The translations under genes and the position numbers were made by a program. A stretch of 38,776 bases of DNA from an uncultured Candidatus Saccharibacteria bacterium (GTDB lineage Bacteria > Patescibacteriota > Minisyncoccia > Phycocordibacterales > Zambryskibacteraceae), in contig CAZYLR010000002.1 in assembly GCA_964648835.1 (NCBI GenBank), forward strand, positions 1 to 38,776. Direction: 5' to 3'. Of the stretch, positions 1,815 to 37,059 are shown in pieces. Each line of letters begins with the position of its first letter. Position 1 is the first letter of the stretch. Below the pieces are notes generated by a model. That model made no database searches. It was not told where the DNA came from and saw only the letters and a list, made by a program, of their open reading frames with translations.

Positions 1815-2195
1815 ATGAAAATAAATATCAAGGCGACTAGCATAGAACTTACCCAAGCCATTTCGGATTACGTGTATAAAAAAATTTCTTCAATTGAAAA
1901 ATATCTTGATAAAAGTAACACAGACATCATCGCTCAAGTGGAAGTGGGCAGGAGTACGCGCCACCACAAGACCGGCAATATCTTCCGCGCGGAAGTGCAT
2001 ATAACCGGTGTGGGCTTGGATTTATATGCTGTCTCCGAGATGGAAGACCTATATGCGGCTATCGATGTTGTCAAAGATGAGATAGTACACAACGTAGTAC
2101 AATCGAAAGGCAAGCGACAGACGCTTGCTAAGAAAGGCGCCGGAATGATGAAAAATATTATGAAGGGTTTAAATTTCTTTAAGAAAAAGAACTAA
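1815..2195 (+). CDS. hpf: ribosome hibernation promoting factor / RaiA family (short form)
   Basis: 126 aa. MKINIKATSIELTQAISDYVYKKI...AEVHITGVGLDLYAVSEMEDLYAAIDVVKDEI matches the HPF/YfiA fold pattern. Confidence 0.85.
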   Translation: MKINIKATSIELTQAISDYVYKKISSIEKYLDKSNTDIIAQVEVGRSTRHHKTGNIFRAEVHITGVGLDLYAVSEMEDLYAAIDVVKDEIVHNVVQSKGKRQTLAKKGAGMMKNIMKGLNFFKKKN

Positions 2196-3433
2196 GCATT
2201 ACCTCTTAAAAAATCTTGCCAGTCCATTTCTCTCTTACCGGCTGGAATAACACGGGTGGGGGAGAATTGGCCATCTTTAATTACAGCATCTTTAATTATT
2301 ACCCGAGTCTCTTGGCCCGTCTTCTTTTTGAAAAACATATAAGCGCCTGGCCAAGTGCTGTACGCCAAAACTTTTTTTAGATTGAGCTCGGCCGGGTCAT
2401 TGAGATTCAAAAGACCGTCCTCTTTTTTAATTAGTTTAGTGTAACTAGCCTTGGCATCATTTTGGGGCGCTTCCTCTATTTCACCACTTACCCACTTCGG
2501 AAGCAATGCTCCGAGTATCTTGCCGCTGGCTCGTCCGAGTTTCTCCTCCACCACATGGTAATGGTCTGGCCAAGGAGTGATAAGGACTTTTGCCCGTGCG
2601 AGTATCGGTCCATGGTCCACCTTCTCGTCCATCCTTATTATCGTGATGCCCAGCTCCTCTTCTTCAAGAATTGCGCCTTGAATTGGCGCCGGGCCGCGCA
2701 GTCGTGGCAGGAGCGAAGGATGAACGTTAAGAGTCTTATATCCCGGCAGTTCAATTAATTCTTTCCGCAAAATTTTGCCGAAGGATGCCACCACGAATAC
2801 GTCCGCTTGGATATTCTTCAATTCTTCTATCGGTAGAGGATCCCTAGCCGAGGTGATGTTAAGCGCGGGAGAAAAACCTGCGAGTTCAAGTTCTTCGAGC
2901 ACATAGCGAGAGAACTGAGAGCTACCGAAAAAGACGAACTTGATATTTTTTGCCGGGGGTATCTCTCGAAGATTTTCGGCTTTGTCGATAAAGAGAATAC
3001 CGTCCAGATGATCCATCTCGTGTTGGAAGATTTGAGCCAAGAGCCCTGATGCCCCTCTTTCGAACTGTTTGCCGGTCTCGCCATACGCCCTGATGGTCAC
3101 TTTCTCGCTCCTTTTAACCTGTCCATATAGCCAGCGGATAGATAAACAGCCCTCTTCCACTTTCTTTTTTTTCTTCGAGGCCTTGATTATCTCCGGATTG
3201 ATAAAGACTAGATCTTTTGTCTTCGTGATTTTCTTGCTTACTACAAATATCCGCAGACTCTCTCCGATTTGCGGCGCGGCGATAGCCGCGCCGTCTTCTT
3301 CGGCATGGAGTGCCTCTCTCATTCTATACAAAATATCTCGAATCTTCTTTGATCCAATACTTTTAATAGGCACAGACTTTGCCTTCTCTCTCAATAAGGG
3401 GGCATTTCTCTCTAAAATTTCAGTTTTTATCAT
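2192..3433 (-). CDS. def-fmt: bifunctional peptide deformylase / methionyl-tRNA formyltransferase (single fused ORF)
   Basis: - The N-terminal ~165 aa carry the three PDF motifs: GAAIAAPQIG, EGCLS and QHEMDHLDG.
- The remainder is Fmt: KFVFFGSSQFS..., NVHPSLLPRLRGPAPIQGAI, and a C-terminal Fmt_C-like part.
- There is no stop between the two halves.
- I prefer the ATG at 3433 (MIKTEILERNAPLLREKAKSV, a typical PDF N-terminus) over the TTG at 3454 in the ORF track. Confidence 0.85.
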   Translation of the reverse strand: MIKTEILERNAPLLREKAKSVPIKSIGSKKIRDILYRMREALHAEEDGAAIAAPQIGESLRIFVVSKKITKTKDLVFINPEIIKASKKKKKVEEGCLSIRWLYGQVKRSEKVTIRAYGETGKQFERGASGLLAQIFQHEMDHLDGILFIDKAENLREIPPAKNIKFVFFGSSQFSRYVLEELELAGFSPALNITSARDPLPIEELKNIQADVFVVASFGKILRKELIELPGYKTLNVHPSLLPRLRGPAPIQGAILEEEELGITIIRMDEKVDHGPILARAKVLITPWPDHYHVVEEKLGRASGKILGALLPKWVSGEIEEAPQNDAKASYTKLIKKEDGLLNLNDPAELNLKKVLAYSTWPGAYMFFKKKTGQETRVIIKDAVIKDGQFSPTRVIPAGKREMDWQDFLRGNA

Positions 3434-3689
3434 TTCGTATTTTAAGGCTGCCAAAAAAACAGCGTGAGAAGTTTGAGCTCTGGGAGCACCTTTTCAAAAA
3501 GAAAGCCAGGTCTTGAAGAGAGAGATGGGAGGTTTTTATGGCCACCGCTCTCATGGGTAATTCTTTCATATCCGCGGCCTTCCTTTCGGCATTGATTCGC
3601 CTATGGAATTCGTCGAGCATCTTCAGGCGTGGATGCTTGAAGAGCCCTTTAACATTGCGATTTTTTAGATTTTCGTCAATAGATTTCAT
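3420..3689 (-). CDS. hypothetical small protein (89 aa), weakly supported
   Basis: ATG ORF upstream of def-fmt and overlapping it by 14 nt. The N-terminal half is plausibly helical and basic, while the C-terminal half is low in information. No family recognised. Confidence 0.3.
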   Translation of the reverse strand: MKSIDENLKNRNVKGLFKHPRLKMLDEFHRRINAERKAADMKELPMRAVAIKTSHLSLQDLAFFLKRCSQSSNFSRCFFGSLKIRNDKN

Positions 3690-3720: not shown

Positions 3721-4725
3721 ATGATGGCGAAAAAACTTGGTATAGATCTCGGTACCACTAATACGCTGGTATTCGTGCCAGGTAGGGGTATTGTTTTAAA
3801 TGAACCTTCGGTCGTCGCGGTTTCCGAAGACAATAAAATTCTTGCCATCGGCGCGGAGGCTAAGATTATGATTGGTCGAACACCTGAAGGCATTTCTGCC
3901 TACCGGCCGATGAAGGATGGAGTGATCGCAGACTATCGAGTGACGGAAGCAATGCTTCGTTACTATATAAACAAAGCACTCGGGAAATGGAACATCTTCA
4001 AGCCCGATGTCTTGATCTCGGTACCGGCAGGGGTGACCTCTACCGAAAGACGGGCAGTGGTCGAAGCGGCTATCAAAGCAGGAGCTAGGAATGCTTATGT
4101 GGTCAAGGAACCGATTCTCGCCGCCATCGGCGCCGGTATTCCTATCCAGGAAGCGGCTGGTCACATGATTGTAGATATCGGTGGTGGAACCACGGACGTG
4201 GCGGTTATCGCTCTCGGAGGCATTGTTGCTTCTACTTCTGTCAAAGTGGCCGGCAACAAAATTGATGCCGCCATAGCCGACTATATCAAGAAAAATTTTA
4301 ATTTGGTTATCGGAGACAAGACAGCCGAAGATATCAAGATTACCATTGGTTCCGCCACACCGATTGACGACGAACTTGTCATGGCGGTGAAGGGTAGGGA
4401 TTTCGTACTCGGCCTACCTCGCACTATCGAAGTCAAGACCAATGAAGTAGTCAAGGCGATATCAAAAGAGTTGCGCGAGATGATTAAGGCGGTTAAAGAG
4501 GTACTTCAAGAAACTCCGCCGGAGCTCTCCTCCGACATCATCGACCGGGGGATTATTATGACCGGCGGTTCCTCCCAGTTGCGCAATTTCCCGGAACTCA
4601 TGATGCGTCGTACCGGCGTAAAGGCTGTCATGGCCAAAGATGCCTACTTTTGTGTGGCCAAAGGCACTGGCGTAGCGCTGGAGCATCTCGATATGTACAA
4701 AAAGAGCATAATTGCAAAGAGGTAG
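3721..4725 (+). CDS. mreB: rod shape-determining protein MreB
   Basis: LGIDLGTTNTLVFV, DIGGGTTDVAVI and IIMTGGSSQLRNF are the actin-fold phosphate/adenosine motifs. Length is 334 aa. Confidence 0.95.
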   Translation: MMAKKLGIDLGTTNTLVFVPGRGIVLNEPSVVAVSEDNKILAIGAEAKIMIGRTPEGISAYRPMKDGVIADYRVTEAMLRYYINKALGKWNIFKPDVLISVPAGVTSTERRAVVEAAIKAGARNAYVVKEPILAAIGAGIPIQEAAGHMIVDIGGGTTDVAVIALGGIVASTSVKVAGNKIDAAIADYIKKNFNLVIGDKTAEDIKITIGSATPIDDELVMAVKGRDFVLGLPRTIEVKTNEVVKAISKELREMIKAVKEVLQETPPELSSDIIDRGIIMTGGSSQLRNFPELMMRRTGVKAVMAKDAYFCVAKGTGVALEHLDMYKKSIIAKR

Positions 4726-12809: not shown

Positions 12810-13715
12810 ATGGCAATTTTTTCTCCACATACTCGGGTGGCAGTAATCCGGGGAGGGCAGTCTAGCGGCTATGATGATTCCCTTAAGACGGGCGAACACA
12901 TCCTTTCAGCCTTGCGGGATATGTCGGAGACCTACGAACCATTAGATATTTTTATCTCCAAAGATGGCGAATGGCACCGCGGAGGGTTGGTACATGAGCC
13001 ACATCGCGCTCTAGAGTATGTGGATATAGTTTGGAATGCGCTTCATGGCTTGTACGGAGAAGATGGCCAAGTACAGAGGATTCTTGAGAGTTTGCAAATT
13101 CCTTTCACCGGCTCGAGCGCCGTAGCCTCGGCACTTGCCATGAACAAAGATATGGCCAAACGTCTATACCAAGAGCATTCTCTCTTAACTCCCGCGCACG
13201 AACTTATTACCGAAGATAACTTGAACGAAGATCGACTGATTGACATTTTCAGAAGCTATCTTCCTCCGATGGTAGTCAAGCCTACCCGTCGATCTGGTAT
13301 GTCTCTAGTACATACCTTCGATGAGCTCAAACAATCAATCAAGGAAGCTTTCTCTCACTCGCCACGAGTGTTAGTTGAGGAGTTTATCAAAGGTGACGAG
13401 ATATCTTGTACTGTGATTGAGGGCGCTAAGGGGGAAAAATTTTACGCTCTTCTGCCATCGAGCAAATTTGAATTGAAATTAGCAGTAGAAGAAAATAAGC
13501 AGATAGAAAGGATGGCGAGGCAGGCACATGAAGTGCTTGGACTCTCCCACTACTCCAGTTCTAACTTCATCATTACGCCTCGAAAGAAGATTTATATATT
13601 GAAAACTAACTCATTGCCGGCGCTTCATAAAGATTCTTTGACGCATGGCTCACTTCACGCTGATGGTTGGCATCCTCGCGACTTCGTCAGCCATGTGCTA
13701 AAGCTTGCGATATAA
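12810..13715 (+). CDS. ddl: D-alanine--D-alanine ligase
   Basis: VAVIRGGQSSGYDDSLKTG, NALHGLYGEDGQVQRILESLQIPFTGS, and an ATP-grasp core. Length is 301 aa. Confidence 0.9.
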   Translation: MAIFSPHTRVAVIRGGQSSGYDDSLKTGEHILSALRDMSETYEPLDIFISKDGEWHRGGLVHEPHRALEYVDIVWNALHGLYGEDGQVQRILESLQIPFTGSSAVASALAMNKDMAKRLYQEHSLLTPAHELITEDNLNEDRLIDIFRSYLPPMVVKPTRRSGMSLVHTFDELKQSIKEAFSHSPRVLVEEFIKGDEISCTVIEGAKGEKFYALLPSSKFELKLAVEENKQIERMARQAHEVLGLSHYSSSNFIITPRKKIYILKTNSLPALHKDSLTHGSLHADGWHPRDFVSHVLKLAI

Positions 13716-13743
13716 ATACAATCTATATGTTTGACAGAGCGCG

Positions 13744-13772
13744 TTGAATTTAGATACACTCTACAATAGAAT
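13744..13772 (+). promoter_or_regulatory. candidate sigma70-type promoter for the GC-rich island
   Basis: TTGAAT (13744-13749), a 17-nt spacer, then TAGAAT (13767-13772). The predicted transcription start is near 13779, at the beginning of the GC-rich segment. Confidence 0.4.
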
Positions 13773-13817
13773 CTCGGCGGGGGAAAACGGTGAACTCTTC
13801 GAGAGAGCGGGGGAAAA

Positions 13818-14057
13818 ATGACGGCCGTCCTGAACAGGAGCGTCGTTTCGCCAGGAGTCGTTTGCATTGCGTGTTATACCATGCTTGGGTCCGCCGAGGA
13901 GTCGGTGCGGGGTGTGCGCGACCACAAGGAGGGGCCGCTTCACCACTTCTGCGCCACACCGGCGGAGAGGCGGGTGAATTCCGCAAGAGCTTCTCGGTTT
14001 CACTTGATCTTGATGAACGGCAACGGGAACGGCGCTTCAGCGAACCCGAACCAGTAG
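13818..14057 (+). CDS. candidate small CxxC protein (79 aa) inside a GC-rich island; could instead be part of a structured RNA
   Basis: The ATG is preceded by GCGGGGG with 4-nt spacing. By hand count about 60 of 79 codons end in G/C, clearly higher than in the overlapping frames. Contains CIAC...HHFC. No family recognised. Confidence 0.4.
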   Translation: MTAVLNRSVVSPGVVCIACYTMLGSAEESVRGVRDHKEGPLHHFCATPAERRVNSARASRFHLILMNGNGNGASANPNQ

Positions 14058-14172
14058 ATGTAACACGGGCCGTAGACACTTCGACGAAGGGAGGATAGAG
14101 TAGTAAAGCGAAATGGCTCGTCGCACCCCCGCCGAGCCAGAGGCAGCTGCCCAAGTACAAGGCCGCTGTCGA

Positions 14173-14210
14173 CCCCGGGGAGGACATCCACTCCTCGGGG
14201 CTTTCTTTTT
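14173..14210 (+). terminator. intrinsic terminator closing the GC-rich island
   Basis: 10-bp stem ccccggggag / ctcctcgggg (one G:U pair) with loop gacatcca, followed by ctttcttttt. Confidence 0.75.
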
Positions 14211-14225
14211 CGGCAATTTCCTGTT

Positions 14226-14299
14226 TGGTGGACCTAGCGAGAATCGCACTCGCGACTCGTCCATGCCATGGACGCGTGTTACTACTATACCATAGGCCC
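14226..14299 (-). tRNA. atypical tRNA-Ala(GGC)-like gene with encoded CCA
   Basis: Minus strand reads GGGCCTA-TG-GTAT-AGTAGTA-ACAC-G-CGTCC-ATGGCAT-GGACG-AGTC-GCGAG-TGCGATT-CTCGC-TAGGTCC-A-CCA.
- Canonical features: G3:U70, U33, A37.
- Deviations: no GG in the D-loop, one A:C mismatch in the D-stem, a T-loop starting UGC rather than UUC, and a 4-nt variable loop. Confidence 0.6.
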
Positions 14300-14356
14300 T
14301 TTTTCCATATTTTAATTGATTTTTTGGTTTCTGTCCTCTATACTTTCGTTTTATTA

Positions 14357-14484: not shown

Positions 14485-14736
14485 ATGTTTTATACATATA
14501 TACTGCAATCAGATAATAATTCGTTTTATATCGGGAGTTGCAAAAATATTCCTAAGCGGTTGCTGTTGCATAATAAACTAAAAGTTAGATCAACAAAGCG
14601 GTATGCGCCTTGGCAACTAGTATATTTTGAAGTCTATGAAAAATTGAGCGATGCTCGACATAGAGAGAAGCAGATAAAATCATGGAAGAAGCGAGAAAAA
14701 GTTGCAAAATTGGTAAAAACATTTAAAATTGCATAA
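14485..14736 (+). CDS. small GIY-YIG nuclease family protein (COG2827/YhbQ-like, 83 aa)
   Basis: FYTYIL...SFYIGSCKNIPKRLLLHN...YAPWQLVYFEVY...ARHREKQIKSWKK carries the GIY, YIG, Arg and Glu signature positions. Confidence 0.8.
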   Translation: MFYTYILQSDNNSFYIGSCKNIPKRLLLHNKLKVRSTKRYAPWQLVYFEVYEKLSDARHREKQIKSWKKREKVAKLVKTFKIA

Positions 14737-14760: not shown

Positions 14761-14834
14761 GGGCCCTTAGCTCATCTGGCTAGAGCGCCTCATTTGCAAT
14801 GAGGAGGTGGCAGGTTCGAGTCCTGTAGGGTCCA
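14761..14834 (+). tRNA. tRNA-Ala (anticodon UGC)
   Basis: GGGCCCT-TA-GCTC-ATCTGGCTA-GAGC-G-CCTCA-TTTGCAA-TGAGG-AGGTG-GCAGG-TTCGAGT-CCTGT-AGGGTCC-A. G3:U70 is present. The D-loop GG and the TTCGA T-loop are canonical. Confidence 0.9.
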
Positions 14835-15197
14835 CCTTTGTTTTCGGGACAATGCTGAAAGTTCTATCTGGTGGGAAATTATGAACCTTGAACGAAACTA
14901 TTTTGAGGGAAACTGACTCGCCTCCGCTTGGTTCGACCAAGCTCACCACAAGTCTCTCCGGCGGGACGCTCAGGCGCGGCGGAAGGAATGGAATTAATTG
15001 TATCTACTTATCCATATGAATGTTTATGTATGATTATTAAACTTAGGAGACTAATCGTAAATTTTTCTAGTTAAAAACTAAGTGCAAAAATAGGCCTATA
15101 TATCGATCTATATATCTCTCAATACTCTTTACATTCTTTGCTATGGTGGTAGTTGGAAGTATGTTAAAATTATTTAGAGGACCGAACATAAAATATT

Positions 15198-18100
15198 ATG
15201 ATAAAATATTTCACGAGTTATAAACAAATTCTACTCCTTGCTTTCTTTTTCTTTGTTCTATTTGGGGGTTATTTTTTGACTGCAGAGGCACAAGTGGTTG
15301 CTCCAAAAGGGCTCTATTTTCTTGAAATCACTTCTCCGAGAGATTCTCCTTTTGGCAGCTACAAAAGGTATCACGATTTTCATAAAATAAATGGAACCTA
15401 TTTTATTCAGGCTTGGCTTTTCACTCCACCTGGCGGCACCATACCTTGCTATCCGGGTAGAACCGATTGTCCAGTAAACAAAAGACTTAACCCATGGCCA
15501 ACAATATGGCTCACCCTGGATGGCGTTAGAATCACTGGCCCGATAAATGCGCCTCCTTATCAGACTTCTCTGAATACAAGACTCTATGAGGATGGAAGCC
15601 ATGTTGTGGGCGCAGATGTCATAGCGAATGATGGATCTGACATACAGGTGGTTGCAGCTACAGTCACCATAGACAATACAATAGGTGGCAGAACAGGACC
15701 TCAAAGGGTAGCAGCCTGCCCGGTTAAGTATGATTTGGAAAAAGGATTAAGACCCGGCTGTGACTGGTCCACTTATCCTGGCAGTTATCCGGGGCTTTCA
15801 GGCTTTCCTCTTCCAGATACAAGGCCAGGAACGCTATATACTTCGCTTGTCTCTTCAAAAGATTTGTGGGTAGAAAGAATGACCACGACAGGAAATTTTC
15901 TTTACAAATTCTATGAAACTCCCGGAAACCATATAACAATCTTGCCCAGGCAAAGATATGCCCATGCAGACCTGAATTATCCATTAATTCCATTAGTCGA
16001 CGGGCCTAGAAACGTAAATCAGGAAGGTTACCTTGTAGGCGGATATGTTGACAAAACCAACGGCGACTTATATGCCATTGCCACCCAAGGTAATTTCGTA
16101 CAGATAACAACTAGAGGGGACATAATAACCCATGCGGGCCAAAGATTGAAATTAGGAGTTAATCCATATTTTTGGAATTCAGGGTTCGTTAATTTGTTTG
16201 GTTCGTCCGGTCCTCCATTCGCCGGCAGCAGAAGTGAGATAATCGGCAATTTTGTGGATGGGCCGAAAGGCTTGAAAGAGCCATGGGACGTTGTGCAAGA
16301 TCCTTTAGATCCTACAGGCAAAACAGCTTACATTTCTGATACGTTGAATCACAGAATTGTAAAAGTAGATATGAAGACTTTGCCGGCAACAGTAACCACA
16401 TATGCGGGTAGCTTAATAAAGACAAGAGGTTACAAAGATGGCGTTGGAACGGAAGCACTATTCAACGAGCCTTGGGGGCTTGCAATTGATGCAAGCGGCA
16501 ATCTTTACGTTACTGACAGATTGAATCACGCTTTGAGAAAGATAGATACAAGCAGAAAAGTCACAACTATTATAAAATCTGCAAAAAATCCTGGAAACGC
16601 AGGAATTACAGACAACTACAGAACGGTTGGAACATCGGGCTTGTCTTTGGCAGCAAGACAATCTATGTACATGATAAATGGCAATTTGAGTAGCGCCTCA
16701 TTAATATTTCCTGAAGGGCTTGAATTTAATTCTGAGGGAAAACTGATTGTTGCAGAGAATTTCATGATGACTCTGAGAAAAATTGATCTGGCAACCAACA
16801 ACATTAGCGCCATGGGCACGATACCATCGGCAAATGATGCAAATCTGAAAAATATCAATATAAACATCGATACAGAAGGCACATGCGGTCCCAAAGATGA
16901 TATTTTAATTGCTACATTTGCGCAAACAGGACCCTGGAGATTGAATGCCAATGGCGGGTACAGGGGAAATTTGTTCACTATTAGCAATAAAATAGAATTG
17001 CCGACAGGAAGGGCCAATACGATGGTTGATGTTCAGTATCCTTGGCTTGCTATTTGCGGAAACGGCGCAATATGGACGAATGGAGCAGCAACCCAGGGTG
17101 TTTTCAGAACAACGCTTGCAAAAACAACCGATCCTGTTATGTCAGCCAGCGATATTGGAAGATATAGTTCAGGGAGACAGATTTACAAATCAGGAGGTTT
17201 GAGTACCTTTCCACCAAGGCCTTCGTTTGAATTAACGCATGGAGTAGACGGGATAAATCATAACGGCAATTTTCCGTCATTTGATGAACTAAACAGCGCA
17301 AGCGATGATGAACTGAAAACACAGATACAAGCAGGATGGGGAAGCTCAACAGGCCCGAGGCCGGAGATAAGCGGCAGAGACTTGGACAACCTGATCTTTT
17401 ATATAAGATGGAACTGCGTGCCTTGCATAAGATCGGGCAACATCAGAGCTACTCCTTTGCCGGGCGATATAACAGCGCCAATAATAAGTGGCATTACGAT
17501 TGAAGAAAGAGCACTTACAAGCGCCAAAATAAAATGGACAACAAGTGAGCCGACAGTCGGATTTATAAAATTCTGGCGGACTGCGCCACATGGGGGATTC
17601 TCCAATGTCGAAGATAGTTATAAAACTAATCATGAAGTTACAGTAACAGGATTGTCGCCCGGCATTACTTATTTCTATACGATACGATCCAAAGATGAGC
17701 CGGGCAATCAGGCTGTAAGTTCGGTTCTGGTTTTTACCACCATCAATGACGGCAGTACTGATACAGTTAAACCCTCCGTGACAATTACAAATCCGATAAA
17801 CGATTCCACCGTGACAGGAACAATAACGATTTCAGCAGTAGCCAGCGATGACAAAGGTGTTGCGGGCGTGCAATTTCAAGTAGATGGTGTAAATTTCGGC
17901 AGCGAAGATCAAACAGCGCCATATTCTGTTTCGTGGGATACTGCAACAGCACTGGCTGGTATACACAGGATAAATGCGATTGCAAGAGATGCGGCGGGTA
18001 ATACAGCGGGTGCAATACCCGTCTTTGTAAAAATTAATGTGATTTCCCCATCAACACTAATCAAAGCTGTTAAAAGTGGTTTGTGGAGCAACATGACGAC

Positions 18101-20927
18101 ATGGGACAGGGGGAGGATACCTAACGCAACGGATGACGTGGAGATCTCTAACTCCATTGTGACATACGATATGGGGCCTTCGAGTATGGCTGCTGAGGCA
18201 AAGACAATTACCATTGCGGGTAGCGGAGTTTTATCGTTTTCACGAACCAAATCAACCCAGCTTGATATGGACGGAAGTATTATGGTTCTCGAGGGAGGAA
18301 AACTTGATGTGGGAACAACAAGCTCGCCGATTCCTGCGGGTATTAATGCCAGGATTGGTTTCAATGTTCCCAACGACCGGTTGTTTCTCGGCGGCAACGC
18401 AACCGGGCCCGACCCGATGATGCCTATGCTTATCCCGGCAGATATTGGCGTGTGGACGATGGGGACAGGCTCACGAGCTGATTTCTATGGAGCCCCGAAA
18501 CCAAAAGTGTGGACTAAACTTGTCGGAGACTCGAGTGCGGGTTCTCTAGTGGTTACATTGAAAGATACGCCACTCGGGTGGCGCGTGGGGGATAAAGTAC
18601 TTGTGACATCATCGAGTAATAATGCTGATCAGTCAGAGGTCAAGTCAATTAGTGCGATTAATGGCAATAAAATTACTCTCAATGTTCCACTGCTTTTTGA
18701 GCACAAAGGAACTTTGCGTGCATACAATACAGTAACAAAAAATAGCCGCATTGTTCCTCTTTCTGGGGGATTGCTTGCTGATGAAATTTTTGTGCGCGAG
18801 CAGGCAGAAGTTGCCTTGCTAACCCAAAACGTGCAAGTAGTTTCAAATTTGGTAAAAGAGAACGACCCCAATCACCGTGCTCACCTCGCCTACATGATGG
18901 GAGCAAGAGGATCACTCGCGTATACAGAGTTCAGGGACCTGGGGCCAAGGGGCAAGATGGGGCGCTACCCTGTTCATCTCCATAAACTTGGGGATGCAGC
19001 TGTTGGAACATTGATCAAAGGCATTTCTATCTGGAGCTCTGTATTGTCACCAATGAATAAATGCATAGTCATCCATTCCTCAAATGGCATAACTGTTCAG
19101 GATTCTGTGGGGTTCAATGCGCAAGGAACATGCTATTATTTTGAAGAAGCGGATGAACTGGGCAATACACTGGAAAATAATCTCGGCGTGCTGGTGCATT
19201 TCCCGGAAGAATTATTCAACACTGCCGTGGCTTCCGCTTTCAGTTATGATCCACGATCGAGTTCTGTTTTCTGGTACCGAGAGGGTAATACGTTTCGAAA
19301 CAATGTTGCGGTTAGCGGCAAAAAGGATGTAGCGGGATTCTGGCTTACGCCGAATTTAGGAGCAAAAGGTTCAGCCCCGACAATTTTTGACGGCAATGAA
19401 TCTCATTCAAATAATTTTGGTTATATCTATTCTGGCGATGATAAGTTGACTGCATCACTCACCCGCGGATTTCTCTGGCGCAATACCGTTGGCCTGGATT
19501 CGCAAGGCTCTCTTGTTAAAACAACAACAAGCAATACGCTTTTCTATCAAAATGGGACGTATTTTCTACCGCCCATGCCTGGCGTACTCGACTCAAATAT
19601 AGTGATTGAGTCGTTTCTTTCGCCAACCGTCAAATTTAATATCAATGATCGTGTACAAACCACCGCGACCTTAAATGTTCGTTTTTCTCCAAGCATATCA
19701 GGAATAATCATAGGTACACAGCCGACAGCGGCTTTGGGCACGGTTATTGGCGGCCCAACCGTAGCAGACGGATACAACTGGTGGCAGATTAACTATGACA
19801 ACGCGCCTGATGGCTGGTCTGTGGGGGATTACCTCCAAACGTATGTCGCGCCTTCTCCAACCGCTCCCACTCTCACCCTTTCCGCAAGTCCCACAACAAT
19901 TACTTCCGGAAGTTCTGTGATACTAACATGGTTTTCAACTAACGCTACATCCTGCACCGCTTCCGGCACTTGGTCAGGAAATAAGGCAATATCAGACACG
20001 CAAGGCACGCAAGTTGTAAATCCTGCAGTAACTTCCACATATACACTTACATGTACCGGAGCCGGAGGAAGCGCTACGAAGTCCGTGATCGTGACCGTAA
20101 CCGTGAGTACGGCAACCGACTCTGTTCTTCCCACTGTTTTCATCACTACTCCCACATCAGGCGCGACTGTCTCCGGCTCGTCAGTCGCAGTGAGCGCGAA
20201 TGCTTCAGATAACGTTGGTGTCACTAAAGTAGGGCTTTGGAAAAATGGTAACCACTTTCTCACTGACGTTGTCTCGCCCTTTGTATTTTATTGGGATACC
20301 ACTTCTGAAGTAAATGGTTCATACTCCTTACAAGCAAGAGCCTATGACGCGGCAGGAAATATTGGCCTGTCGCCAACTATTGCCGTGATAGTAAATAATA
20401 TAGCTACTAATCCGGTTCTCGGATTCCCACTTATTCTTCAAGGTCCGAATGTTCCAGAATCAAAGATCGCAGTAGTCTCGACAGGCTCGGTTGACCCGAG
20501 GATCTATCAGGATGTTGTTCTCGAACTGTCAGCCTATGATGCTAATATTGCCGACGAAGGAGAGCTCTATGTTAACGGGAATGGTCCCATCCCTCTTTTT
20601 GGCAACAGCGCAAAGGGAGCGAATGTATACAATGTAGTTATGATACGTGTCTCGACACCAGCAAGTTGGTGGAAGGCAGGCGATAACACTCTGCGATTCA
20701 CCCACACAAAGACAGCCGGCTATAGGGTTGATGCTATCCAACTTAACTTCATAGGCGTACCACAGACGACAAGCGCACGACCATCAGACTCTTTATGGGC
20801 CAGAAGCATAGCTAGTGTCCAATCAGGTATTGGTGAGTGGTTGTCTATCGGTCGCCATGCTCTGGGAAGTGTCGTTGCGTCATATCAAAATCTTATCTCC
20901 GAGCTTGTAGGATGGCTTGTCAGGTAG
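15198..20927 (+). CDS. giant secreted/surface multidomain protein (1909 aa)
   Basis: Domain assignments are by motif only; coordinates are approximate.
- N-terminal signal/anchor: LLLAFFFFVLFGGYFLTAEA.
- NHL-type repeats at ~16250-16800: YISDTLNHRIVKVD, LYVTDRLNHALRKID.
- FN3 at ~17465-17745.
- Ig-like domains at ~17765-18040, ~19850-20100 and ~20110-20390.
- G8-like segment at ~18060-18420: GLWSNMTTWDRGRIPNATDDVEI.
- Right-handed beta-helix repeats at ~18900-19560.
- SH3b-like domain at ~19640-19840. Confidence 0.85.
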   Translation: MIKYFTSYKQILLLAFFFFVLFGGYFLTAEAQVVAPKGLYFLEITSPRDSPFGSYKRYHDFHKINGTYFIQAWLFTPPGGTIPCYPGRTDCPVNKRLNPWPTIWLTLDGVRITGPINAPPYQTSLNTRLYEDGSHVVGADVIANDGSDIQVVAATVTIDNTIGGRTGPQRVAACPVKYDLEKGLRPGCDWSTYPGSYPGLSGFPLPDTRPGTLYTSLVSSKDLWVERMTTTGNFLYKFYETPGNHITILPRQRYAHADLNYPLIPLVDGPRNVNQEGYLVGGYVDKTNGDLYAIATQGNFVQITTRGDIITHAGQRLKLGVNPYFWNSGFVNLFGSSGPPFAGSRSEIIGNFVDGPKGLKEPWDVVQDPLDPTGKTAYISDTLNHRIVKVDMKTLPATVTTYAGSLIKTRGYKDGVGTEALFNEPWGLAIDASGNLYVTDRLNHALRKIDTSRKVTTIIKSAKNPGNAGITDNYRTVGTSGLSLAARQSMYMINGNLSSASLIFPEGLEFNSEGKLIVAENFMMTLRKIDLATNNISAMGTIPSANDANLKNININIDTEGTCGPKDDILIATFAQTGPWRLNANGGYRGNLFTISNKIELPTGRANTMVDVQYPWLAICGNGAIWTNGAATQGVFRTTLAKTTDPVMSASDIGRYSSGRQIYKSGGLSTFPPRPSFELTHGVDGINHNGNFPSFDELNSASDDELKTQIQAGWGSSTGPRPEISGRDLDNLIFYIRWNCVPCIRSGNIRATPLPGDITAPIISGITIEERALTSAKIKWTTSEPTVGFIKFWRTAPHGGFSNVEDSYKTNHEVTVTGLSPGITYFYTIRSKDEPGNQAVSSVLVFTTINDGSTDTVKPSVTITNPINDSTVTGTITISAVASDDKGVAGVQFQVDGVNFGSEDQTAPYSVSWDTATALAGIHRINAIARDAAGNTAGAIPVFVKINVISPSTLIKAVKSGLWSNMTTWDRGRIPNATDDVEISNSIVTYDMGPSSMAAEAKTITIAGSGVLSFSRTKSTQLDMDGSIMVLEGGKLDVGTTSSPIPAGINARIGFNVPNDRLFLGGNATGPDPMMPMLIPADIGVWTMGTGSRADFYGAPKPKVWTKLVGDSSAGSLVVTLKDTPLGWRVGDKVLVTSSSNNADQSEVKSISAINGNKITLNVPLLFEHKGTLRAYNTVTKNSRIVPLSGGLLADEIFVREQAEVALLTQNVQVVSNLVKENDPNHRAHLAYMMGARGSLAYTEFRDLGPRGKMGRYPVHLHKLGDAAVGTLIKGISIWSSVLSPMNKCIVIHSSNGITVQDSVGFNAQGTCYYFEEADELGNTLENNLGVLVHFPEELFNTAVASAFSYDPRSSSVFWYREGNTFRNNVAVSGKKDVAGFWLTPNLGAKGSAPTIFDGNESHSNNFGYIYSGDDKLTASLTRGFLWRNTVGLDSQGSLVKTTTSNTLFYQNGTYFLPPMPGVLDSNIVIESFLSPTVKFNINDRVQTTATLNVRFSPSISGIIIGTQPTAALGTVIGGPTVADGYNWWQINYDNAPDGWSVGDYLQTYVAPSPTAPTLTLSASPTTITSGSSVILTWFSTNATSCTASGTWSGNKAISDTQGTQVVNPAVTSTYTLTCTGAGGSATKSVIVTVTVSTATDSVLPTVFITTPTSGATVSGSSVAVSANASDNVGVTKVGLWKNGNHFLTDVVSPFVFYWDTTSEVNGSYSLQARAYDAAGNIGLSPTIAVIVNNIATNPVLGFPLILQGPNVPESKIAVVSTGSVDPRIYQDVVLELSAYDANIADEGELYVNGNGPIPLFGNSAKGANVYNVVMIRVSTPASWWKAGDNTLRFTHTKTAGYRVDAIQLNFIGVPQTTSARPSDSLWARSIASVQSGIGEWLSIGRHALGSVVASYQNLISELVGWLVR

Positions 20928-35814: not shown

Positions 35815-37059
35815 ATGATCAATGACTTCATTTCTCTTTTCCAAACCGATTTTTACCTGAAGGTCTGGCGGTTCGCTTTCGCGACATGGCCTGTCTGGTT
35901 GCCCATCTCTCTGGTCAGCTTGCTCTTACAAACATGGTTCTCTTATAAGCGCCGGGAGTGGCTGAAAAACACAGGGAGCATACTTCTGGAAATAAGAATT
36001 CCGAAAAATACGGACAAATCGCCAGCCGCCATGGAGATGGTGATAGAAGGAATTTGGGAAGACGTCATAGGTTCGCTTACAGGTGCTTATTTGGAGGGTG
36101 AGGTTAGAGACGTTTTTTCTCTTGAAATAGTTTCAATCGGCGGCGAAGTGAAATTTTTTATCTGGGCATTTCCTAAGTGGAAAAATATTATAGAGTCGAG
36201 AATTTATACCCACTATCCCGGCGCTGAAGTTATAGAAGTAGAAGATTATGCTGTCAAAGTTATTTTTGACCCCGAGAAGATGAATTTGTGGGGTATCACT
36301 ACTAGACTTGTTAAACCGGATGCTTACCCGATTAAGACTTATATAGAATTTGAGCTTGATAAAGGCAATAAAGAACAAGAAGAAATAGTGGACCCGCTTG
36401 CCCCGGTTCTTGAACATCTTGGTATGCTTAAGCCAGGAGAACAAGCGTGGATTCAGATTTTGATTCAAGGTCACCGCAAGGAAGGCCTTCAAGATATACG
36501 TCTATTCTCGAAACCGGATTGGCAAGAAGGTATCAAAAAGGAAATAAAGAAAATCATTGAGACAGAATCACTTGTCACGCCGAAGCCCGATAAACCTCTG
36601 CTTATCCCGTACCTCACCAAGACTCAAGATGATACGATTAAGGCCATTCAACGTAATTCTGCCAAACTCGCCTTTGATACCATGATGAGGGTGGTTTATG
36701 TGGCACCCAAGGAAATATATGTCAAGACGAGAGGCGTGGGGATTATCGGCAGTATGCGCCAATTTGGTTCAAAAACTCTCAATGGTATCCGGCCACACAA
36801 ATTTATTCCCGGTATTGTCTATCCCTGGGAAGATTTTCTTAATATCAGAAGAAGATATAGGCAAAAAACACTACTCGAAGCATATAAGAGACGTTCTTTC
36901 TTTAATGTTCCTTTCAAGCACGTTTTTGGCAAGCCGTACGTTCTGACAACCGAAGAACTGGCCACTCTCTTTCACTTTCCCGGCACGACTGTTACTACCC
37001 CGACCCTTACGCGTGTACCTTCGAAGAAAGCGGAAGCCCCGTCGAATTTACCTTTATAA
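35815..37059 (+). CDS. hypothetical membrane-anchored protein (414 aa)
   Basis: An N-terminal TM helix is followed by LLEIRIPKNTDKSPAAMEMV and a C-terminal LTTEELATLFHFPG. These motifs resemble, from memory, the N-terminal module of CPR/archaeal HerA/VirD4-like ATPases, but no ATPase domain is present. Confidence 0.55.
   Translation: MINDFISLFQTDFYLKVWRFAFATWPVWLPISLVSLLLQTWFSYKRREWLKNTGSILLEIRIPKNTDKSPAAMEMVIEGIWEDVIGSLTGAYLEGEVRDVFSLEIVSIGGEVKFFIWAFPKWKNIIESRIYTHYPGAEVIEVEDYAVKVIFDPEKMNLWGITTRLVKPDAYPIKTYIEFELDKGNKEQEEIVDPLAPVLEHLGMLKPGEQAWIQILIQGHRKEGLQDIRLFSKPDWQEGIKKEIKKIIETESLVTPKPDKPLLIPYLTKTQDDTIKAIQRNSAKLAFDTMMRVVYVAPKEIYVKTRGVGIIGSMRQFGSKTLNGIRPHKFIPGIVYPWEDFLNIRRRYRQKTLLEAYKRRSFFNVPFKHVFGKPYVLTTEELATLFHFPGTTVTTPTLTRVPSKKAEAPSNLPL

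Follow-up and report, generated by a model that had tools for sequence, protein, structure and literature searches.

A conserved tRNA-Ala(GGC) of Patescibacteria with A18 and G55 in the elbow

The window, by which we mean the whole 38.8-kb stretch of DNA that was analysed, carries a real, working-looking tRNA-Ala of a groundwater Patescibacteria (CPR) bacterium (Paceibacteria, Zambryskibacteria-like), in which two nucleotides of the elbow have been exchanged, A18 and G55 standing in place of G18 and U55. Positions 18 and 55 covary between tRNAs, the two prevailing states being G18/U55 and A18/G55, and the gene is vertically inherited in Patescibacteria. As the odd elbow is conserved across CPR, the molecule most likely serves ordinary translation and is not set aside for cell-wall synthesis; very probably, it is a functional elongator tRNA-Ala(GGC), passed on vertically, with an alternative elbow. 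G18 and pseudouridine 55 are regarded as near-universal tRNA nucleotides; here A18 and G55 jointly take their place, in a conserved tRNA of the CPR superphylum, in archaea of the DPANN group, and in the majority of the tRNAs that certain phage arrays encode. A limited search of the literature returned no description of the A18/G55 covariation or of this tRNA variant.

Gene identity and cloverleaf

The gene is called as tRNA-Ala(ggc) by ARAGORN, and the Rfam model RF00005 matches it at full length (14229-14299, minus strand; model positions 1–71 of 71) with 51.3 bits (E = 2.7e-08), above the gathering score of 29 (Table 1). Both results agree with the 74-nt minus-strand cloverleaf that had been proposed from the letters alone, together with a scoring by this Infernal model, in an earlier sequence-only reading. 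The two other tRNAs of the window, tRNA-Asn and tRNA-Ala(UGC), score 70.7 and 62.9 bits, respectively. Low scores with standard models (51 versus 63–71 bits) could lead to A18/G55 tRNAs being mis-flagged as pseudogenes.

All four stems are intact. The acceptor stem (GGGCCUA/UAGGUCC) has G3:U70 and A73, the D stem (GUAU/ACAC) holds an A12:C23 mismatch, and the anticodon stem (CGUCC/GGACG) and the T stem (GCGAG/CUCGC) have five base pairs each; the variable loop is AGUC (4 nt), and CCA is encoded at the 3′ end. The sequence-only reading had described G3:U70, the two 5-bp stems, the A:C mismatch, the 4-nt variable loop and the CCA correctly, and its GUGC at positions 53–56 is borne out by the T loop UGCGAUU. 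Its D loop without GG stands as far as the dinucleotide is concerned; one G stays, however, as Infernal aligns the loop with A18 and G19. Of the canonical elbow set, G19, U54, C56 and A58 are present, with A for G at position 18 and G for U at position 55. As had also been claimed, tRNA-Asn and tRNA-Ala(UGC) have canonical loops (GG in the D loop, UUCGA in the T loop) and no full CCA, their 3′ ends being followed by CUC and CCU, respectively.

Compared with an elongator tRNA-Ala(GGC) of the E. coli type, the window tRNA has the same cloverleaf, G3:U70, A73 and anticodon loop (A32-U-GGC-A-U38), including the pair on which decoding fidelity depends, and it shares G53:C61 and G51:C63 of the T stem, U54/A58 and G19/C56. 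It differs in having A18 and G55 for G18 and U55 (psi55), a 7-nt D loop, a 4-nt variable loop, a 71-nt body and the A12:C23 mismatch, which is conserved.

Table 1. Coordinates of the tRNA-Ala(GGC) gene, its elements and its neighbours in the window.
Feature	Position	Strand	Basis and remarks
tRNA-Ala(GGC) gene	14226..14299	-	71 nt + encoded CCA (14226-14228); ARAGORN, RF00005, CPR homologues
AlaRS identity pair G3 (14297) + U70 (14232), plus A73 (14229)	14232..14297	-	sequence, Infernal
Anticodon loop A32-U33-G34-G35-C36-A37-U38	14263..14269	-	sequence
D loop AGUAGUA; A18 = 14283, G19 = 14282	14280..14286	-	Infernal alignment
T loop UGCGAUU; U54 = 14248, G55 = 14247, C56 = 14246, then G57, A58	14242..14248	-	sequence, Infernal
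tRNA-Ala(UGC)	about 14761-14836	opposite strand to tRNA-Ala(GGC)	ARAGORN/Rfam
ddl (D-Ala-D-Ala ligase)	12810..13715	+	convergent neighbour, context only; Pfam, NCBIfam
Promoter-like site (AGGACA, 17 nt, TAAAAT)	14309..14337	-	consensus scan; ends 10 nt upstream of tRNA 5′ end
G+C-rich hairpin	14173..14200		26 nt downstream of tRNA; T run follows on + strand

Conservation in Patescibacteria and the elbow contact

A pattern search returned the same 71-nt tRNA-Ala(GGC) from at least 55 Patescibacteria species or loci, among them Zambryski-, Kaiser-, Nomura-, Taylor-, Portnoy-, Wolfe- and Falkowbacteria, Paceibacterota and Saccharibacteria. The sequence is identical in L057, L084 and L085; L001–L006 are identical strains and carry no comparative information. 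In 41 distinct CPR homologues, 95.6% of the cells are paired and 12 of the 21 stem pairs change on both sides. None of 500 shuffles reached the observed values, and slid controls were 27–51% paired. Because its stems are kept by compensatory change in relatives, the gene is not a pseudogene; the decaying, unconserved copy that would have refuted the sequence-only reading is rejected on these changes and on the conservation at 55 or more loci.

It had been suggested that the tRNA may be chargeable, and G3:U70 and A73 in the window gene agree with this; both are invariant in the homologues (a GU pair at 3:70 in 41/41), where the search pattern demanded them, so that only their presence in the window gene is independent. 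A32 and U38, which the pattern left free, are likewise invariant (41/41), as are G19 and C56, and the D loop of the homologues reads A-G-Y-A-G-Y-A, with A17/G18 in alignment numbering invariant. Within the T stem, 51:63 is G:C in all 41 homologues, 50:64 is G:C in 31, C:G in 8 and A:U in 2, and 49:65 is C:G in 22, G:C in 16, A:U in 2 and U:A in one. The encoded CCA is not a conserved feature (16/54 homologues). None of the 55 CPR loci was found to have a second Ala(GGC). Within CPR, the elbow change is limited to Ala(GGC), to part of the Ala(CGC) tRNAs and to a Cys or Leu tRNA now and then. The deviation, which had been described as gene-specific and not lineage-wide, is indeed specific to the isoacceptor within the genome, but it is conserved across Patescibacteria.

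Among 385 tRNAs that were not selected by pattern, and that are not phylogenetically independent, G18/U55 was found in 212, A18/G55 in 76, G18/G55 in 24 and A18/U55 in 7; most of the G18/G55 class is due to AGGA loops that can be read in more than one way or to T loops that were parsed wrongly. The compact CPR scaffold also exists with canonical loops (AGCGGUA/UUCAAUU in L188). Of its 71 positions, 7 are different in the variant L078, 18 and 55 among them, and L216 differs from L031 at 8; the metagenome matches listed include at least 13 tRNAs that combine the CPR scaffold with canonical loops. A GG together with G55 occurs in only one of 55 CPR matches (L074, with a canonical D arm), which was left out of the 54-member ARAGORN set of CPR homologues.

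In the usual elbow, G18 is intercalated into a UUCRA T loop and bonded to pseudouridine 55. It slots in between nucleotides 57 and 58 of that loop, forming a single hydrogen bond with psi55, and the G19:C56 face is what RNase P, T-boxes and the A, P and E sites of the ribosome use (PMC4810234). T loops outside tRNA are mostly UGNRA, with an intercalator that is almost exclusively adenosine (bioRxiv 10.1101/2022.12.26.521914). The T loop of the window tRNA, UGCGA, fits UGNRA, and A18 falls, in the alignment, where the intercalating nucleotide is expected. Judging from sequence and analogy, the G18/UUCRA contact would be replaced by one between A18 and a UGCRA T loop. A reverse-Hoogsteen U54:A58 pair and an outer G19:C56 pair would still be possible, and therefore the L-shape and the flat recognition face should be preserved. 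Since UGNRA with an intercalating adenosine is standard in riboswitches and introns, the tRNA appears to have swapped one known solution for another. The likeness to the T-loop motif of introns and of riboswitches (FMN, cobalamin) includes both the UGNRA loop and the predicted intercalator between 57 and 58, the adenosine A18. The context, a tRNA elbow whose outer face has the Watson-Crick pair G19:C56, is different, and from the covariation and this analogy we infer that A18 and G55 are in contact in three dimensions. The family would then be a natural demonstration, at the level of sequence, that a tRNA elbow can use the riboswitch-type combination of UGNRA and adenosine.

Translation and alternative roles

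GCU and GCC make up 26% and 27% of the alanine codons in the window (n = 726; 53% in sum), and these are the codons that the tRNA would decode on the ribosome; a second tRNA-Ala(GGC), of canonical type, may be encoded elsewhere in the genome, and tRNA-Ala(UGC) might cover the GCN codons alone. AlaRS would charge the tRNA through G3:U70 and A73, as the conserved identity elements suggest, and the tight T stem with G51:C63 predicts binding by EF-Tu. The pair A32-U38 is reported to be essential if tRNA-Ala(GGC) of E. coli is to decode accurately (PMC7293025); its invariance in CPR, like that of G51:C63, points to use in translation.

The same double change is found in DPANN archaeal tRNA-Ala(GGC), in which 13 of 21 pairs covary, and in tRNA arrays. 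UGC T loops are carried by 13 of 19, 16 of 18 and 18 of 22 tRNAs on three IMG/VR viral contigs with such arrays (L127, L129 and L146, respectively). Arrays of the Chthoniobacter type are identical to viral ones, and in that of L038 every isoacceptor except Met has a UGC T loop; loci of this kind come from IMG/VR contigs, Chthoniobacter, Planctomycetota and Myxococcota. The array tRNAs of phages and prophages resemble the window tRNA in having D loops with A18-G19 and T loops of the form UGCRA, and the Ala(GGC) of Chthoniobacter and phages also in its length (71 nt) and in the sizes of its D loop (7 nt) and variable loop (4 nt). They are unlike it in their stem sequences and in being densely clustered, with up to 26 or more genes per array for many amino acids, whereas the window gene is chromosomal and solitary, in a synteny common to its relatives; the sole tRNA gene nearby, on the opposite strand and at a distance of 460 bp, is that for tRNA-Ala(UGC).

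These occurrences bear on the possibility that the elbow change is itself adaptive. G55 removes the substrate of TruB (U55) and alters the T-loop/D-loop surface, and it could enable the tRNA to evade some enzyme, toxin or defence nuclease that acts on the elbow or the T loop, while still translating. We consider this unlikely, although it would explain why the change is fixed in CPR and DPANN, both episymbiotic, and used throughout phage tRNA arrays. The preponderance of UGC T loops in the three IMG/VR arrays, the identity of the Chthoniobacter-type and viral arrays, with the all-but-Met set of L038, and the presence of the elbow, independently, on scaffolds of bacteria, archaea and phages are consistent with it, and one report describes phage tRNAs that evade tRNA-targeting defences, though via the anticodon loop (PMC10264068). 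However, the analysis turned up no enzyme or toxin as a candidate, both elbow states exist on one CPR scaffold, which near-neutral drift via a compensated double change would fit as well, and the change in CPR is confined to the few alanine, cysteine and leucine tRNAs given above. A bolder proposal, which we hold to be quite doubtful, is that A18/G55 defines a distinct class of tRNAs, which translate and are insulated from enzymes, toxins and nucleases directed at U55 or the elbow, fixed in the Ala(GGC) of CPR and DPANN and adopted wholesale in large phages. If true, phage arrays would constitute a second, ‘orthogonal-elbow’ tRNA set. In a narrower version, the Ala(GGC) copy may be partitioned towards non-ribosomal alanine transfer.

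That the tRNA is chargeable and kept off the ribosome, as the alanine donor for peptidoglycan branching of the Fem/MurM type or for alanyl-phosphatidylglycerol, seems to us improbable. Such a diversion to cell-envelope aminoacylation had been suggested in the sequence-only reading on the basis of a staphylococcal precedent with GUGC and an altered D loop. The precedent is real: in the non-proteogenic tRNA-Gly genes of staphylococci, TGC or TGT replaces TTC in the T loop, there is no pseudouridine, and position 19 is D (PMC7826273); a UGC T loop with loss of G18 is the mark of these tRNAs. The window tRNA resembles them (NP1-3; S. epidermidis Ia/Ib; FmhB/FemAB) in having UGC for UUC, no psi55 and a broken GG in the D loop. 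In contrast to them, it keeps G19 and with it G19:C56, the face of the elbow on which the ribosome and RNase P rely. Their T stem is weak for EF-Tu (A49-U65, U50-A64, A51-U63), whereas that of the window family is predicted to be strong, its G51:C63 being invariant. They are extra gene copies restricted to staphylococci, and the window tRNA is conserved across a superphylum; they co-occur with Fem transferases, and none was found near the window gene.

The genomic neighbourhood lends the cell-wall role some colour, as VanY and YceG are also encoded within the window and at 15 of 55 CPR loci ddl is found 0.14–4.2 kb from the tRNA, in two orientations and with Ddl identities of 72% to 26%. The synteny with ddl for which a check had been suggested is therefore recurrent, and nothing but this proximity speaks for a link to the cell wall. 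The search for FemABX, MurM and MprF homologues that had likewise been suggested was run on the window and on the ORFs near the tRNA. It revealed no FemAB or MprF domain in the 38.8 kb, lenient thresholds included, and none among the 25 commonest of the 124 families formed by the 150 ORFs nearest the tRNA at the 55 CPR loci. Moreover, a special elbow is not needed for such a role, because recognition of an ordinary tRNA-Ala by the FemX of Weissella is confined to the acceptor end (PMC2175331). The same elbow is present in DPANN archaea and in many isoacceptors of phage arrays, and the same scaffold is found with a canonical elbow. A32-U38 is invariant, even though the anticodon loop is not read by AlaRS. 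The idea of a diversion to the cell wall is not supported, and a UGC T loop alone is not to be taken as the sign of a non-ribosomal tRNA.

Genomic surroundings

The remaining reading, in which a foreign or mobile tRNA came in recently and is tied to the adjacent G+C-rich stretch, or else the gene is a decaying pseudogene, is extremely improbable and effectively refuted by the conservation and covariation: an adjoining 480-bp stretch of 54–65% G+C that is absent from relatives, an Rfam score below those of the other two window tRNAs, and GIY-YIG elements that insert beside or into this tRNA gene in the relative L085 are outweighed by the four intact stems, the identical tRNA in three relatives, a family that extends over many CPR classes with compensatory changes, and the synteny uvrA-uvrC-ddl-tRNA, common to relatives and partly conserved in CPR. 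A recent phage or mobile origin was also rejected on the evidence of the virus collections, since the window tRNA-Ala(GGC) has no match in GenBank phages and the 24 IMG/VR matches are of other sequence types, with no CPR-type tRNA among them. Together with the CPR-wide inheritance and the shared synteny, this leaves the foreign or mobile tRNA that the sequence-only reading had considered without support.

The G+C-rich segment itself (13750-14225) was considered as a structured RNA and as a gene, and both were discarded: it has no Rfam match at E ≤ 1 and fold z-scores of +0.66 and -1.35, and its ORF translations are of low complexity without a Pfam match. It shows no similarity in related loci and no match to GenBank phages. 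The hairpin downstream of the tRNA is terminator-like only if read on the plus strand, and its role is uncertain. The segment upstream with the promoter-like site, which may, from its sequence, serve as the promoter of the tRNA gene, is 95% identical in L085 and 84% identical in L028.

A conserved tRNA-Ala(GGC) gene

The genes of the window are small, as is typical of Patescibacteria (CPR), and include a def-fmt fusion, mreB, tgt, uvrB, uvrA (865 aa), uvrC (397 aa), ddl (301 aa), DUF5671, leuS and yceG. The Ddl protein was found on Rifle-type groundwater metagenome contigs, all 100% identical across the region, and the nearest species-level relatives are Zambryskibacteria and Paceibacterota genomes (UvrA 83-88%, Ddl up to 72% identity). 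ARAGORN detects three tRNAs, and the Rfam tRNA model matches tRNA-Ala(GGC) over its full length with 51.3 bits (threshold 29); tRNA-Asn scores 70.7 and tRNA-Ala(UGC) 62.9. The sequence, GGGCCUA-UG-GUAU-AGUAGUA-ACAC-G-CGUCC-AUGGCAU-GGACG-AGUC-GCGAG-UGCGAUU-CUCGC-UAGGUCC-A-CCA, bears out every feature listed in the sequence-only reading: G3:U70, a D-stem A12:C23 mismatch, a D loop of 7 nt that lacks GG, a variable loop of 4 nt, G53-U54-G55-C56 and an encoded CCA, with canonical loops and no full CCA in the other two tRNAs. Infernal aligns an A opposite model G18 and a G opposite model G19, so one guanine of the D-loop pair is retained. A promoter-like site (AGGACA, 17 nt, TAAAAT), conserved in comparison loci L085 and L028, ends 10 nt upstream of the gene; a G+C-rich hairpin lies downstream, followed by the G+C-rich stretch.

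Coordinates of the tRNA-Ala(GGC) gene and of other features in the window
Feature	Position	Strand	Remarks
tRNA-Ala(GGC)	14226-14299	-	Rfam match 14229-14299
tRNA-Ala(UGC), intact	14761-14836	+	
tRNA-Ala(UGC), 5' fragment	14357-14465		nt ~2-35, with ~78-nt hairpin-rich insert in D loop
GIY-YIG ORF	14485-14736	+	83 aa; PF01541, 5.6e-16
G+C-rich stretch	13750-14225		~480 bp, 54-65% G+C, within ~45% G+C region between ddl and tRNA
Promoter-like site	13731-13760	+	flanks G+C-rich stretch
Terminator-like hairpin with T run	14173-14210	+	flanks G+C-rich stretch
def-fmt fusion	2192-3454	-	one 420-aa ORF; peptide deformylase domain at residues 12-162, methionyl-tRNA formyltransferase N- and C-terminal domains at 202-391
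1909-aa protein	15198-20927	+	after tRNA-Ala(UGC); NHL, Big_7, G8 and CEMIP beta-helix domains
414-aa ORF	35815-37059	+	beside yceG; no Pfam/NCBIfam match even at E<=1
Segment missing in strain L005 (Logan SRR29904084), otherwise identical	~14835-14940		~105 bp, directly downstream of tRNA-Ala(UGC)

The window gene is a conserved CPR tRNA-Ala(GGC). A scan of GTDB representatives, one genome per species, for tRNA-Ala(GGC) whose T loop reads G53-U54-G55-C56-R57-A58 returned at least 119 matching loci. Among the matches listed are 55 CPR loci (by titles Zambryski-, Kaiser-, Nomura-, Taylor-, Portnoy-, Wolfe- and Falkowbacteria, Paceibacterota and Saccharibacteria), 29 DPANN archaea, 16 Verrucomicrobia, Planctomycetota or Myxococcota, 10 scattered bacteria whose tRNAs are canonical in other respects, and 9 chance matches that are not tRNAs. 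The CPR sequences belong to a single family (GGGCCYRURGUAUAGYAGUAACACGCGUCCAUGGCAUGGACGAGUC, variable T stem, UGCGAYU), and three loci (L057, L084, L085) carry a tRNA identical to that of the window. Across 41 distinct CPR sequences, 95.6% of stem cells are paired and both sides have changed in 12 of 21 pairs; 0 of 500 shuffles reach these values, and shifted pairings are 27-51% paired. The 12:23 mismatch is conserved (35 of the 41); the encoded CCA, present in 16 of 54 homologues, is not.

Covariation of positions 18 and 55 in the elbow

In the tRNA elbow, G18 is intercalated between T-loop residues 57 and 58 with one hydrogen bond to psi55, and G19:C56 presents the exposed flat face that RNase P, T-boxes and all three tRNA sites of the ribosome (A, P and E) use (PMC4810234). 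tRNA-Ala(GGC) keeps U54, C56, R57, A58 and G19. The T loops of FMN and cobalamin riboswitches read UGNRA in 88.7% of cases, where tRNA has UUCRA, and the nucleotide that intercalates between their positions 4 and 5 is nearly always an adenosine (bioRxiv 10.1101/2022.12.26.521914), so that the CPR tRNA matches a general T-loop solution. The variant elbow would thus still fold, with A18 and G55 probably making the contact in place of G18 and psi55.

When ARAGORN was run on all loci, 385 tRNAs fell outside the pattern selection. These gave 212 G18/U55, 76 A18/G55, 24 G18/G55 (for the most part AGGA loops whose register is ambiguous, or T loops that were misparsed) and 7 A18/U55 (mostly parsing artefacts), an association with p = 2.6e-43 in Fisher's test on sequences that are not independent. 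Among the matches listed from a metagenome scan, 13 contigs carry the same compact 71-nt scaffold with canonical loops (D loop A-N-Y-G-G-Y-A, T loop UUC), several with the GUAU/ACAC D stem and AGUC variable loop; where their ORFs match reference loci, the best matches are mostly CPR. Canonical L188 and variant L078 differ at 7 positions, canonical L216 and variant L031 at 8, and in each such comparison with the nearest variant both 18 and 55 differ. GG and G55 occur together in one of the 55 listed CPR matches (L074), whose D arm is canonical and which alone among the CPR loci is absent from the ARAGORN isoacceptor tally. Judged from these sequences, the elbow change is an apparent compensated change at two near-universal tRNA positions, recurring in CPR, DPANN and phage tRNA arrays; no description of the A18/G55 pattern was found in the literature searched.

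Within CPR, 18 of 19 tRNA-Ala(UGC) have the canonical form, Ala(CGC) shows a mixture of T loops (UGC 4, UCC 8, UUC 3), and departures are rare in the remaining isoacceptors, where UGC-type Cys and Leu tRNAs turn up occasionally. CPR tRNAs also depart from U55 in another way, through a UCC T loop (C55); this loop accompanies a normal GG D loop in 8 of 15 Ala(CGC) and also in some Arg and Lys tRNAs (L023, L031, L057, L065, L073, L102, L106, L125; L171 and L197).

The Verrucomicrobia, Planctomycetota and Myxococcota matches belong to dense tRNA arrays made up mostly of UGC-type isoacceptors, as in L038, where this holds for all 26 tRNAs except Met. The same T-loop pattern, searched in IMG/VR, gave 24 viral contigs with such arrays, many of 100-275 kb. 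In three of them (L127, L140, L142) the Ala(GGC) sequence is identical to that of Chthoniobacter, and these arrays therefore look phage-borne. Arrays in which most isoacceptors have A18-G19 D loops and UGC T loops, with Met canonical, occur in L038, L040, L069, L027, L072, L079 and viral L127-L149, hosted by IMG/VR contigs up to 275 kb and by Chthoniobacter, Planctomycetota and Myxococcota genomes; some of their Leu tRNAs are only 74-77 nt and thus without a long variable arm. Scattered tRNA-Ala(GGC) genes combine a GG D loop with G55 and are otherwise canonical (L013, L015, L059, L091, L101, L119, L026, from Bdellovibrionota, Planctomycetia, Pseudomonadota, Blastocatellia, Bipolaricaulota and Firmicutes); either genuine single changes or errors in assembly could explain them.

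Probable ribosomal use and the cell-wall alternative

A32 and U38 are invariant in 41 of 41 sequences, although both positions were free in the search pattern. In E. coli, accurate decoding by tRNA-Ala(GGC) depends critically on A32-U38, whose mutation leads to miscoding and toxicity (PMC7293025). Since AlaRS depends on G3:U70 alone (PMC7293025), this anticodon-loop conservation is hard to explain in a tRNA that never decodes. EF-Tu affinity is determined by pairs 49:65, 50:64 and 51:63, which are weak (A-U, U-A, A-U) in staphylococcal non-proteogenic tRNA-Gly (PMC7826273); in the CPR family all 41 sequences have G:C at 51:63, and 49:65 and 50:64 are nearly always G/C. Codon usage, a check proposed with the sequence-only reading, gives GCU and GCC 53% of 726 alanine codons in the window ORFs. 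Together A32/U38, the EF-Tu T stem and codon demand point to ribosomal use, and tRNA-Ala(GGC) is most likely an ordinary elongator with an A18/G55 elbow.

The sequence-only reading had instead proposed a non-ribosomal alanine donor for the cell wall or envelope, which is unlikely and finds no genomic support beyond the proximity of ddl. The staphylococcal precedent that it named is correct (TGC or TGT for TTC, D at position 19; PMC7826273). However, those tRNAs have D19 and a weak T stem, whereas the CPR tRNA has G19 and G51:C63; the resemblance is real and limited to the T-loop triplet, and the proposal fails on two of the features that define its model family, the EF-Tu T stem and the loss of G19. 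The search for Fem- or MprF-type homologues gave no FemAB/MprF domain in the window ORFs, even at lenient thresholds, and none among the commonest families of the 150 ORFs nearest the tRNA in CPR loci (124 Pfam families; YchF GTPase, Ddl and UPF0020 methyltransferase lead with 5 each). Synteny with ddl held in part: the gene lies 0.14-4.2 kb from the tRNA in 15 of the 55 listed CPR loci, above chance expectation, in convergent and co-directional arrangements and with Ddl identity from 72% to 26%. Ddl, however, is not a tRNA-using enzyme, and common descent of the loci inflates this count. Recognition of ordinary tRNA-Ala by Weissella FemX is confined to the acceptor end (PMC2175331), and DPANN tRNA-Ala(GGC) has the same AGYAGYA D loop and UGCGA T loop, with 13 of 21 pairs covarying. 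A decaying pseudogene or a recently acquired foreign or mobile tRNA, the remaining alternatives, is ruled out by the stem pairing with its compensatory changes and by CPR-wide conservation, with no match to the window tRNA in GenBank phages and no CPR-type tRNA among the 24 IMG/VR viral matches.

Neighbouring elements

The G+C-rich stretch contains no convincing gene, Rfam match or significant fold and has no counterpart in related loci; the 145-aa ORF that public assemblies place in it gives a low-complexity translation without a Pfam match. The GIY-YIG ORF lies between the tRNA-Ala(UGC) 5' fragment and the intact gene, and looks like part of a homing-endonuclease-type element targeting tRNA genes that leaves a complete copy downstream. 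L085:166-556 has the same layout for tRNA-Ala(GGC), with its first 21 nt, an insert, a GIY-YIG ORF and the full tRNA, and its insert begins TTCGTCCCGAT, resembling the window insert TTGTCCCGAT. The layout recurs with tRNA-Met at L079:~3840-4460.
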